Sequence record: OP870147.1 | Source of the DNA: Escherichia phage vB_Eco_F31 | Direction: 5' to 3' (one strand) | DNA length: 64,000 nucleotides | Shown: piece by piece, positions 1 through 9,504 of the stretch | Numbering within the stretch: the stretch's first letter is position 1 | Layout: each line of letters begins with the position of its first letter | Notes under the pieces: generated by a model | Seen by the model: the letters and a program-made list of their open reading frames with translations, nothing else | Databases searched by the model: none | Told to the model about the DNA's origin: nothing | Made by a program: the position numbers and the translations under genes

Positions 1-224
<224 letters not shown>

Positions 225-225
<1 letters not shown>

Positions 226-461
226 TGGACGATTTAATTCAAGCTATTAAATCAAACGACCTCGTTGCTACTCGAAAGTTTTTTGAAAGTGCAATGGCAG
301 AAAAAGCGGTTCGTTTGATTGAAGCACGCAAAGCAGAAATCGCTTCTCAATTTTTGATTGAAGGCGAAGAACCTGAAGAAGAAAAGAAAGCTAAAGCTTC
401 GGAAGACGACGCTGATGAAGGCGATGACGACGAAGACGAAGATGATGAGGACGATGAATAA
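225..461 (+). CDS. 67: Prohead core protein gp67
   Basis: 78-aa ORF with acidic D/E-rich C-terminus, position between 20 and 68 as in T4. Confidence 0.75.
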
Positions 462-886
462 TGTATCTTATCCCTGAATCTTATGAATTGGTACTCGAAA
501 ATGTCGAAGCACTTATTCCTGAAGCACAGGGCCGAATCGATGCATTGTCTTCTGCTCTCGATATTGACGATATAAATACTATTATCGAGAACATGCTTGA
601 AACTGAAACGGATTTAGCTGTTGCAATGGCTTCCATTATTAATGAAGAACAGTTAAATGAGTTTATCGTTAAACATGTTTCTTCTCGTGGTGAAGTCACC
701 CGCACTAAAGACCGTAAAACTCGTGAACGTAACGCGTTCCAAACCACTGGTCTTTCTAAAGCAAAACGTAGACAAATCGCTCGTAAGGTCGTTAAAGCTA
801 AAAAAGCTAACCCTTCAGGCCAAGTTAAAGGCTTGCGTAAGCGTAAAAAAGCTCTTAAACGTCGTAAAGCATTAGGATTAAGCTAA
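461..886 (+). CDS. 68: Prohead core protein gp68
   Basis: 141-aa ORF, start overlaps gp67 stop (ATAATG), basic C-terminus; T4 synteny and size. Confidence 0.75.
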
Positions 887-7357: not shown

Positions 7358-8776
7358 TTATGGATATGTATAGATGATACCAGTTTCCAAAGCAGTTTTA
7401 TGGATGATGTATCCATTACGTGATTCTTGAACATCAACTTCTGGATAATCTTTCATCATCTTCTGAAGAGTGTAACGATGCAGGTAGTATTTACTATCTG
7501 GATCTTCAGTTTTCCAATCTTTACCTTCTTCAGTCATTTTTTGGATTTCATCCATAACCCACCATCCGCACCAGATGTAAGCTGAAGTACGATGTGGAAG
7601 AGGATGAACATAAGGTAATTCACCTTCTGGTTCTGGAGCAACTTTATCGGTTACCTGAACTTGACCTTCTGCTGTAATAGTTTTGCTATCGTAATCAGTT
7701 GCAGTAATAGTTGCAGTAACTTCAATAGTTTGACTTCCAATAGATGAGGTATCAACGGTATATACATTAGTTGACCCTTCTACAGGAGAAGAATCTTTCT
7801 TCCATGAATACTCAATTTGCGCTTCTTCTGGAGCATCAGTGACATTAGCGGTAAATGTAGCCGAAGCATCTTGCTGAACGTTAATAGAAGGAGGAGTCAA
7901 TGTAACCCGTGGATTCATTGTCTTCTTATTAACCGTTAATGATACTTCATTCGAAGTAACTTCCTTTGCATCATAATCTGTCGCGGTTACTTGGGCTACA
8001 CACTTAATTCTTTTTACTCCACTTGTAGTCGGAGTATAGCTAAATGTAGAGTTAGTTTCTCCACCAACCTGTGAATCATCTACATACCACTGATACGTAG
8101 CAGACGCTCCAACCGGTTGAGAAGCTAAGGCAGCAGTAAATTGAACTGGGGTTCCAATTACTCCGGCTGAAGGACTATTGGGAGTTACTGCCAACGTAGT
8201 TGTCTGTGTCTTTTTATTAACAGTCAGTGACACTTCATTAGAAGTAACGCTTAGTGCGTCATAATCTGTTGCGGTTACTTGGGCTACACATTTAATTTTT
8301 TTAACTCCGCTTGTGGTAGGAGTGTAATTGAATGTAGCAGAAGTTGCTTCGCCAACAGGAGAATCATCTACATACCATTGATAAGTAGCGTTTGCGCCTG
8401 ATGGCTGCGAAGCTAAAGCGGCGGTAAATTCAATAGCTGTTCCTATTACTCCAGCGTCAGGGCTATTAGGAGTTACAGCTAAGGTAGTCGTTTGTGTCTT
8501 GTTTTGAACTGTGATAGTTGTAGTAGCTTCTGCTGTTTCAGCTTCAGCGTCTGGAACTGTATTTGTTGCAACTACTTTAATAGTCTTTTGACCGGCAGGT
8601 CCTTTTAGTACATAACTAAAAGTTGCTTCAGCTCCATCTTGTGGAACATCATCCACAGACCAAGCATATGTAATAGGTCCATCTCCAGTTTGACCACTGG
8701 GTGTAGCAGTAAACTGCTTAGTCTCATCTATAACTCCAGTAGGTGTTTTAGGAGTTATATCAACTGTAAAAGCCAT
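7358..8776 (-). CDS. hoc: Highly immunogenic outer capsid protein Hoc with an extra tandemly duplicated Ig-like domain
   Basis: 472-aa ORF; N-terminus MAFTVDITPKTPTGVIDETKQFTATPSGQTG and C-terminus ...IIHKTALETGIIYTYP match T4 Hoc; two ~96-aa internal repeats. Confidence 0.85.
   Translation of the reverse strand: MAFTVDITPKTPTGVIDETKQFTATPSGQTGDGPITYAWSVDDVPQDGAEATFSYVLKGPAGQKTIKVVATNTVPDAEAETAEATTTITVQNKTQTTTLAVTPNSPDAGVIGTAIEFTAALASQPSGANATYQWYVDDSPVGEATSATFNYTPTTSGVKKIKCVAQVTATDYDALSVTSNEVSLTVNKKTQTTTLAVTPNSPSAGVIGTPVQFTAALASQPVGASATYQWYVDDSQVGGETNSTFSYTPTTSGVKRIKCVAQVTATDYDAKEVTSNEVSLTVNKKTMNPRVTLTPPSINVQQDASATFTANVTDAPEEAQIEYSWKKDSSPVEGSTNVYTVDTSSIGSQTIEVTATITATDYDSKTITAEGQVQVTDKVAPEPEGELPYVHPLPHRTSAYIWCGWWVMDEIQKMTEEGKDWKTEDPDSKYYLHRYTLQKMMKDYPEVDVQESRNGYIIHKTALETGIIYTYP
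7931..8506 (-). repeat. Tandem in-frame duplication (2 x ~288 bp) encoding two ~85% identical Ig-like domains within hoc
   Basis: aa 91-186 and 187-282 of Hoc both read (N/Q)K(K)TQTTTLAVTPNSP.AGVIGT...ATYQWYVDDS...TSGVK.IKCVAQVTATDYDA..VTSNEVSLTV; DNA near 8215-8250 and 7927-7960 nearly identical. Confidence 0.8.
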
Positions 8777-9454: not shown

Positions 9455-9466
9455 GATATTTCCTCA

Positions 9467-9474
9467 TTATAAAT
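9467..9474 (+). promoter_or_regulatory. Late promoter TATAAATA (uvsW)
   Basis: Exact TATAAATA 31 nt upstream of the uvsW ATG. Confidence 0.55.
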
Positions 9475-9504
9475 ATAACTATATTTATTACATGGTAATT
9501 TGAC

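Follow-up and report, generated by a model that had tools for sequence, protein, structure and literature searches.

The five-domain Hoc of Escherichia phage vB_Eco_F31 very probably stems from an old tandem duplication of an Ig-like module

The head decoration protein Hoc is present as ~155 fibres per capsid, and the four-domain fibre of T4 has been published at a length of ~180 A. In a survey of 650 Hoc homologues, Fokine et al. 2023 (PMC10385173) described strings of one to ten Ig-like domains, ten being the number in the Hoc of Muldoon, and remarked on the 'great variability' of Hoc even among close relatives of T4. The Hoc of phiPNJ-9 has three domains and is without D3; its domain 2 binds MUC2 via S183-L184-T185 (PMC11853027). 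In the four-domain Hoc of phiPNJ-6, the gene of which shares 90% DNA identity with the gene described here, MUC2 is bound by domain 1, not by domain 2 (PMC11150434). As phiPNJ-9 and Muldoon illustrate, the number of Ig domains varies in T4-like Hoc proteins, and mucin-binding sites reside in individual domains.

An extra Ig-like domain in Hoc is likewise already known, having been annotated long ago for RB30. The features of the RB30 hoc record (AY101183) include 'Region: immunoglobulin-like domain', the statement that an intragenic repeat yields an additional immunoglobulin-like domain, and a repeat_region at 367-944, and the GenBank record of Escherichia phage moskry has a repeat_region at the place homologous to the repeat considered below. 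Our literature search, made in a limited library, found no paper behind the RB30 hoc record; it also found no account of a series of one, two or three domain-2 modules, nor of non-orthology of 'domain 2' among four-domain Hocs, which is weak evidence.

Here, the hoc gene of Escherichia phage vB_Eco_F31 is examined in a stretch of 64,000 nucleotides from sequence record OP870147.1, referred to as the window, the first 24 kb of which are 98.4% identical to moskry (species Mosigvirus mar005p1). In a preliminary description, the Ig-like domain that this gene has beyond T4 was taken to result from a recent duplication. Such a domain is not new, given the RB30 and moskry annotations and the variable domain number noted in the literature; its age and its distribution among phages are taken up below. 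The gene is very probably a common five-domain allele, encoding four Ig-like domains and a capsid-binding domain, that arose from an old in-frame duplication. The one new point to emerge from the sequence comparisons concerns the single 'domain 2' of four-domain Hocs, which appears to be paralogue A in some (RB14, ATK47), paralogue B in others (T4, RB3) and a chimera running from A to B in the rest.

Identity and domain layout of the window Hoc

The preliminary assignment of the open reading frame to hoc, and the length of its product, agree with homology searches and with synteny (Table 1). T4 Hoc (PDB 5vf3 chain Z) is a phmmer match to the window protein with E = 2.9e-222, and PHROG 1149, 'Hoc-like head decoration', matches it with E = 7e-138, while Pfam places a PKD domain at aa 195-253 and Ig_3 / I-set at aa 289-373. 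The gene order around hoc is rnlB - 24.2 - 24.3 - hoc - inh - uvsW, as in T4 and moskry, so that hoc has inh on one side and 24.3/24.2/rnlB on the other, as expected for the late head-gene region. The N-terminal part of the protein is a string of Ig-like domains, as indicated by the Pfam PKD/Ig matches, by the structure model described below and by the multi-Ig chains that it retrieves with Foldseek. Its C-terminal domain aligns with that of T4 Hoc with few substitutions, the HPLPHR segment included, and the PHROG Hoc families match this part by itself with E = 1.9e-54. The computed pI is 4.5 for the whole protein and 4.2 for unit A.

Table 1. Features of the hoc gene and its product, with positions in the window
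Feature	Position	Strand	Remarks
hoc CDS	7358..8776	minus	472 aa + stop; from the list of open reading frames
Ig-like domain 1 (aa 1-90)	8507..8776	minus	aligns with T4 Hoc 1-90
Unit A (aa 91-186), first domain-2-type Ig-like domain	8219..8506	minus	repeat; without separate T4 counterpart
Unit B (aa 187-282), second domain-2-type Ig-like domain	7931..8218	minus	counterpart of T4 domain 2
Ig-like domain 3 (aa 283-378)	7643..7930	minus	aligns with T4 187-282; Pfam Ig_3 / I-set
C-terminal capsid-binding domain (aa 379-472)	7361..7642	minus	aligns with T4 283-376; PHROG
TRF tandem DNA repeat	7919..8500	.	period 288 nt, 2.0 copies, 78% matches, score 705
S183-L184-T185, end of unit A	8222..8230	minus	same residues as the phiPNJ-9 MUC2 site (PMC11853027)
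S279-L280-T281, end of unit B	7934..7942	minus	second copy of the SLT motif

T4 Hoc has 376 aa, in agreement with the preliminary description; this is its length in PDB 5vf3 chain Z and also in NC_000866, where hoc spans 110187-111317 (1131 nt). The window protein aligns with it in two blocks, window 1-111 with T4 1-111 and window 189-472 with T4 93-376, and therefore has exactly one 96-aa unit beyond T4. The extra domain-2-type Ig-like domain is thus present as claimed, in the form of an in-frame 288-nt tandem repeat, and the alignment shows T4 to have a single unit and not both repeats. In other respects, the two genes belong to the same family, lie at the same position and are colinear over D1, D3 and the capsid-binding domain at about 90% nt identity, although T4 carries segE between inh and uvsW and the window does not. 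Each repeat had been said to match T4 domain 2, and both do, albeit unequally: unit B is identical to it at 93% of amino acids and 91% of nucleotides, whereas unit A reaches 84% amino acid identity.

The boundaries first proposed for the repeats, aa 91-186 and 187-282, stand, but their identity had been put slightly too high, at about 85%: 79 of the 96 residues (82%) are the same (BLASTP E = 2e-56). The DNA copies had been described as still very similar, yet they are identical at only 219/288 nt (76%), with the differences falling 12/11/46 on codon positions 1/2/3. Once aligned, domain 3 shares about 35-41% identity with units A and B, and the TATDYD motif is common to all three. The linkers flanking the unit read TVQNKT / TVNKKT.

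Tandem repeats are prone to mis-assembly, and the hoc records of T6 and KNP5 look damaged, so that a repeat expanded by the assembler might be suspected. The two copies, however, differ at 69/288 nt, which allows reads to be placed uniquely, and an assembler cannot collapse or expand copies that are 24% different. Moreover, the reading frame is intact with both copies under purifying selection, and the same 1419-nt structure is found in many independent assemblies as well as in the single-gene RB30 record. An assembly artefact is accordingly very improbable.

Domain prediction had been suggested as a check on the Ig-like character of the repeats, and its outcome is favorable, for the Pfam PKD/Ig matches are joined by an AF2 model, built on an alignment of 30 sequences of 472 aa, in which residues 1-378 form four all-beta domains with pLDDT mostly 80-94 over 10-residue blocks (81-93 in domain 1). 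In the model, the strand pattern of unit A (strands E99-187) recurs 96 residues on in unit B, from which each 96-aa repeat is predicted to be one complete beta-sandwich domain. A Foldseek search of the PDB with the window Hoc returned chains of four or five Ig/cadherin-type domains; RB49 Hoc (3SHS) was absent from the first 50 PDB matches, and global TM-scores are meaningless for Hoc, which is a flexible chain. The modeled C-terminal domain was set aside on account of its pLDDT of 40-64, a low value that stems from the shallow alignment, all 30 sequences being >86% identical.

Age of the duplication

The closest described counterpart is the Hoc of RB30 (AY101183.1, AAM52483.1), which also has 472 aa and whose gene is 91% identical in nucleotides and colinear over 1419 nt, with the tandem 288-nt repeat and the domain layout as in the window. 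RB30 is a Tequatrovirus and the window phage a Mosigvirus; nucleotide identity between the two is 86% in unit A and 90% in unit B.

Two adjacent, in-frame copies of equal length (288 nt), with 82% identity in protein, could be taken to reflect a recent duplication of domain 2 in the window phage's own lineage, as was originally proposed. Divergence estimates by the method of Nei-Gojobori argue strongly against such an event. Units A and B of the window differ by a dN of 0.131 and a dS of 1.19 (dN/dS 0.11), whereas between the Mosigvirus window and T4, domain 1 has a dN of 0.064 and a dS of 0.25, and domain 3 together with the C-terminal domain a dN of 0.058 and a dS of 0.34. The synonymous divergence between the repeats is therefore three to five times that of the flanking hoc sequence. 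Within seven two-unit genes, the medians for A against B are a dN of 0.15 and a dS of 1.04, and between phages the median dS is 0.37 for A-A, 0.39 for B-B, 0.25 for D1-D1 and 0.21 for D3+C.

Furthermore, a matrix of nucleotide identities shows that the units cluster by position across phages, not by genome. Window unit A matches unit 1 of RB30, PP01 and UGKSEcP1 at 86-87% of nucleotides, against 76% for its neighbor B. For window unit B, identity to the second or only unit of other phages is 90-95%, with 94-95% for the single units of Mosigvirus mar009P5 and NicPhage. Each window copy is nearer the copy at the same position in RB30, PP01, HP3 and fPS-90 than its own neighbor, and this matrix, together with 23 diagnostic sites, separates A from B in 7/7 two-unit genes, some mosaic patches apart. 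The paralogues are thus neither mutually closest nor low in dS, as a recent lineage-specific duplication would have left them, and about one in three related phage records shows the same architecture. Together, these observations make a recent duplication in this lineage highly improbable.

On the evidence of these comparisons, the synonymous divergence between A and B is near saturation and the duplication appears to be old. The dS values and the grouping by position further indicate that it took place before any of the sampled T4-type hoc alleles had diversified. Both copies have been retained under purifying selection, and would hence both be functional domains.

An upper bound is suggested by RB69 Hoc (471 aa), with which an alignment had also been recommended. 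This protein too has five domains, and its C-terminal domain is 100% identical in amino acids to that of the window, but identity between its two middle domains is only 42%, compared with 82% for units A and B of the window. Both window units are nearer RB69 unit 1 (51-54%) than RB69 unit 2 (~40%), and the duplication appears to be younger than the split from the RB69-type Hoc.

Five-domain Hocs with a conserved C-terminal domain are also found in Dhakavirus IME341 (472 aa) and Jiaodavirus ValerieMcCarty02 (468 aa). In these two, however, the paired domain is of the D3 type (58% identical) and not, as in the window, of the domain-2 type; the Hoc of Jiaodavirus 15882-6 (374 aa) has a single D3-type domain. 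To judge from the alignments, the extra domains of RB69, IME341 and ValerieMcCarty02 differ in origin from that of the window, and the D3-type pairing in other genera points to gain and loss of Ig modules of about 96 aa as a recurrent mode of Hoc evolution.

Module number in T4-type hoc genes and the single-unit genes

Of the 662 phage records matching hoc, 60 were sampled evenly. The gene is 1419 nt long in 22 of these (RB30, PP01, HP3 and fPS-90 among them), about 1131 nt in 29 (T4, T6, RB3, RB14, RB68 and others) and 1707 nt in two (UGKSEcP1 and YUEEL01, with three units and 568 aa). The two-unit gene is therefore not peculiar to the window phage; going by this sample, a five-domain Hoc would be carried by roughly a third of sequenced T4-type coliphages, with about half having one unit and few having three. 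The Hocs of UGKSEcP1 and YUEEL01 are built from the same 96-aa tandem module, unit 1 being A-type and unit 2 mostly B-type, but a third unit (type C, 81% identical to B in amino acids) gives them six domains as against five in the window. A similar distribution is seen among the best 120 protein clusters (90% identity), of which 79 have 376 aa, 29 have 472 aa and 8 have 568-570 aa; odd lengths of 377, 378 and 468 aa also occur among them. Some public hoc records look damaged, that of T6 being split into two CDS and that of KNP5, of 2072 nt, having no more than a short CDS.

The window gene belongs with the two-unit genes in that its 472-aa product has an in-frame pair of 96-aa domain-2-type domains between D1 and D3, and in that its units 1 and 2 are orthologous to those of the other two-unit genes. 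Among its nearest relatives, moskry, vB_EQ1, G53 and WFbE185 are colinear with the 24-kb query at ~98% identity, whereas APCEc01, FL18, AV110 and mar005P1, equally close to it at ~98%, fall about 288 bp short, and module number thus varies inside one species. The hoc genes of AV110 and mar009P5 are 1131 nt long. The hoc gene of moskry is 94% identical to that of the window in unit A and 99-100% identical in the rest of the gene, and in the Hoc of P0116 (378 aa), unit B is fused to the tail of D3 at the TATDYD motif, with loss of domain 3.

Eight single-unit hoc genes were typed at the DNA level by means of 23 nt sites that separate A from B. RB14 and ATK47 are A-type at all diagnostic sites, and RB3 is B-type behind the D1-side linker. 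A switch from A to B lies between nt 29 and 75 in T4, mar009P5 and NicPhage, and between nt 107 and 128 in HY03, while Kha5h is a mosaic that runs from B to A and back to B. In T4, the first ~30 nt of the unit are A-type, nt 75-224 are B-type and nt 255-256 are A-type again; in the summary classification, T4 domain 2 is placed as paralogue B, with RB3.

At the protein level, the linker residue is the only fixed difference between A and B, and relaxed thresholds give six positions; as most of these fall within the central loop (unit aa 50-57), they serve to type the loop but are too few to place breakpoints. The 79 single-unit protein clusters comprise about 45 with an A-type central loop and about 28 with a B-type loop. 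An attempt to type units by thirds against window A and B, which yielded AAB and ABB chimeras, was dropped, since it depended on few residues and a context-dependent linker, and was superseded by the DNA diagnostic sites. When unit B by itself was run with phmmer against 1.84 billion representatives in order to count domain-2-type modules per Hoc, giant multi-Ig proteins, some matching in as many as 39 stretches, crowded the list, which was uninformative on the history of Hoc.

The preliminary description implied that the T4 state is ancestral and the window phage derived. This direction is questionable, since four-domain Hocs carry A, B or A-to-B chimeras, and loss from a two-unit gene would fit at least as well. 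We give an even chance to the broader proposition that a two-unit gene was ancestral to all sampled T4-type hoc and that the four-domain genes, T4's included, are repeated deletion products. It would account for single-unit genes that are paralogue A, paralogue B or A-to-B chimeras with differing breakpoints, although a simple A-B deletion produces neither the B-to-A-to-B mosaic of Kha5h nor the A-type bases of T4 at nt 255-256. The pairwise divergences are likewise in keeping with it: RB14 and RB3 differ by a dS of 0.98 in the unit and 0.13-0.25 in the flanks, and ATK47 and NicPhage by 0.95 compared with 0.17-0.39, while NicPhage hoc equals the window hoc without unit A (dS of 0.06 in D1, 0.10 in D3+C and 0.15 between its unit and B). 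Both loop types are present among the 79 clusters, as noted above, but diagnostic positions in the protein are few because of mosaicism, the DNA-level typing covers eight single-unit genes, and the first two of its sites sit in the linker and are context-dependent. Rooting with RB69 does not polarize the tree either, for its unit 1 is 51-54% identical to A and B alike, which bounds the age of the split and gives no direction. For T4 in particular, descent of the four-domain Hoc by secondary deletion from an ancestral A-B gene, with a 'domain 2' that is non-orthologous among four-domain Hocs, is advanced tentatively, its probability falling a little short of one half.

Alternatively, A and B might be two long-standing allele classes of one domain 2 that were joined by unequal crossover during co-infection. 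T4-type phages recombine freely and exchange of hoc is patchy, short homology would be supplied by the flanking linkers (TVQNKT / TVNKKT), and pure A-type and pure B-type single-unit genes do both occur with similar flanks. Yet such a fusion needs two classes with a dS of about 1 to be kept long-term within 288 nt alone while the flanks were homogenized, and tandem paralogues account more simply for the three-unit genes and for the preponderance of the A-to-B direction among chimeras. We consider an allelic origin unlikely.

According to the favored explanation, an old in-frame duplication, the 288-nt module of Ig-like domain 2 would have been duplicated in tandem to give A and B, which would then have diverged to synonymous saturation with both under purifying selection. 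Module number would since have been polymorphic (one, two, three) in T4-type hoc, even within species. The most likely cause would be the highly recombinogenic replication of T4-type phages, which may lead to unequal homologous crossing-over between modules, and co-infecting phages would also swap hoc segments. Footprints of recombination are visible in the join of P0116, in the A-to-B chimeras with their different breakpoints and in the unit A patch of moskry, and these are patterns of the kind expected from an A-B tandem that has undergone unequal crossing-over many times.

Implications for the Hoc fibre

In the window Hoc, the frame is intact, two conserved Ig-like modules are present and the capsid-binding domain is conserved. 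From its near-identical C-terminal domain we infer that, like T4 Hoc, one monomer would sit at the center of each gp23 hexamer on the mature capsid. Extrapolation from the published T4 value of ~180 A suggests that each fibre would be one Ig module longer, at roughly 220 A, with 155 additional acidic Ig modules per virion, and each fibre would gain a second adhesive module of the domain-2 type together with a second SLT motif. A longer fibre and altered adherence are plausible by analogy. A gain in mucin binding through the second domain 2 can be hypothesized but is not assured, because MUC2 binding by the Hoc of phiPNJ-6 resides in domain 1, not in domain 2.

As a discovery, the extra domain carries little weight, being a known and common variant, and the residual interest lies in the population picture. 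Work on Hoc display or mucus adherence in therapeutic 'T4-like' phages would have to reckon with forms of 376, 472 and 568 aa even within a species, and two four-domain Hocs may differ in which paralogue serves as their 'domain 2'. The hoc locus would also offer a clean natural case of copy-number change of a protein module by recombination in a lytic phage. If T4 is indeed a deletion product, module number (1-3) would serve as a rapid control on fibre length and adhesion that unequal recombination resets even inside a species, and results on mucin or E. coli binding by domain 2 would not be transferable between look-alike phages.

Module loss and probable local exchange within hoc

In the 378-aa Hoc of protein cluster P0116, aa 1-269 and aa 364-472 of the window protein are joined, such that the first domain (D1) and units A and B are followed directly by the tail of domain 3. 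The join falls at TATDYD, a motif common to units A, B and domain 3, and domain 3 was removed by recombination between non-adjacent modules. When the window's hoc is compared with that of phage moskry, identity across D1, unit B, domain 3 and the C-terminal domain is 99-100%, whereas unit A is only 94% identical, and this localized drop indicates a patch exchange within that one module.

Coordinates of features in and around hoc
Feature	Record	Position	Description
hoc	window	7358-8776 (-)	472 aa
Unit A of hoc	window	8219-8506	aa 91-186
Tandem repeat	window	7691-7719	12-13 nt, 2.3 copies, within domain 3 of hoc
Gap between inh and uvsW	window	9455-9504	50 bp, in place of T4's segE
RB69 hoc	NC_004928	112612-114027	471 aa, five domains
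T4-type hoc	MG010123.1	18688-20103	472 aa, 91% identity

Small features and irregular public records

The moskry record likewise annotates a repeat_region for the small tandem repeat in domain 3. Outside hoc, T4, unlike the window, carries a homing endonuclease gene, segE, between inh and uvsW.

Several public records of hoc are irregular. In T6 (NC_054907), the gene is annotated as two overlapping CDS spanning 1132 nt, probably owing to a frameshift, while the hoc region of KNP5 (NC_055713) measures 2072 nt and its CDS only 588 nt; both look like sequencing or assembly trouble, or disruption, in the repeat region. MG010123.1, a 32-kb record, is probably mislabelled or contaminated, since its T4-type hoc sits under the name 'Staphylococcus phage SAJK-IND'. 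The taxonomy line of HP3 (NC_041919), a phage with a two-unit hoc, gives the genus Rosemountvirus, yet HP3 is T4-like.

Hoc across genera

Independently, the Hocs of Dhakavirus and Jiaodavirus (IME341, ValerieMcCarty02) have two D3-type domains in tandem, with 58% identity to one another, and Klebsiella phage 15882-6 encodes a four-domain relative (374 aa) in which one of the two is missing.

In Tequatrovirus records, most matches to hoc have 90-95% DNA identity; for the 24 kb around it (window 1-24000), most fall at 80-90%. This difference points either to exchange of the Ig-coding part of the gene between Mosigvirus and Tequatrovirus or to unusually strong conservation of that part.

RB69 Hoc is, like that of the window, a five-domain protein, and its C-terminal capsid-binding domain is identical to the window's (100% protein, 96% DNA identity), whereas identity to the window's Ig domains reaches only about 40-54%. 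Given this disparity, Hoc is a mosaic, in which a conserved anchor is combined with Ig modules that are either fast-evolving or exchanged.
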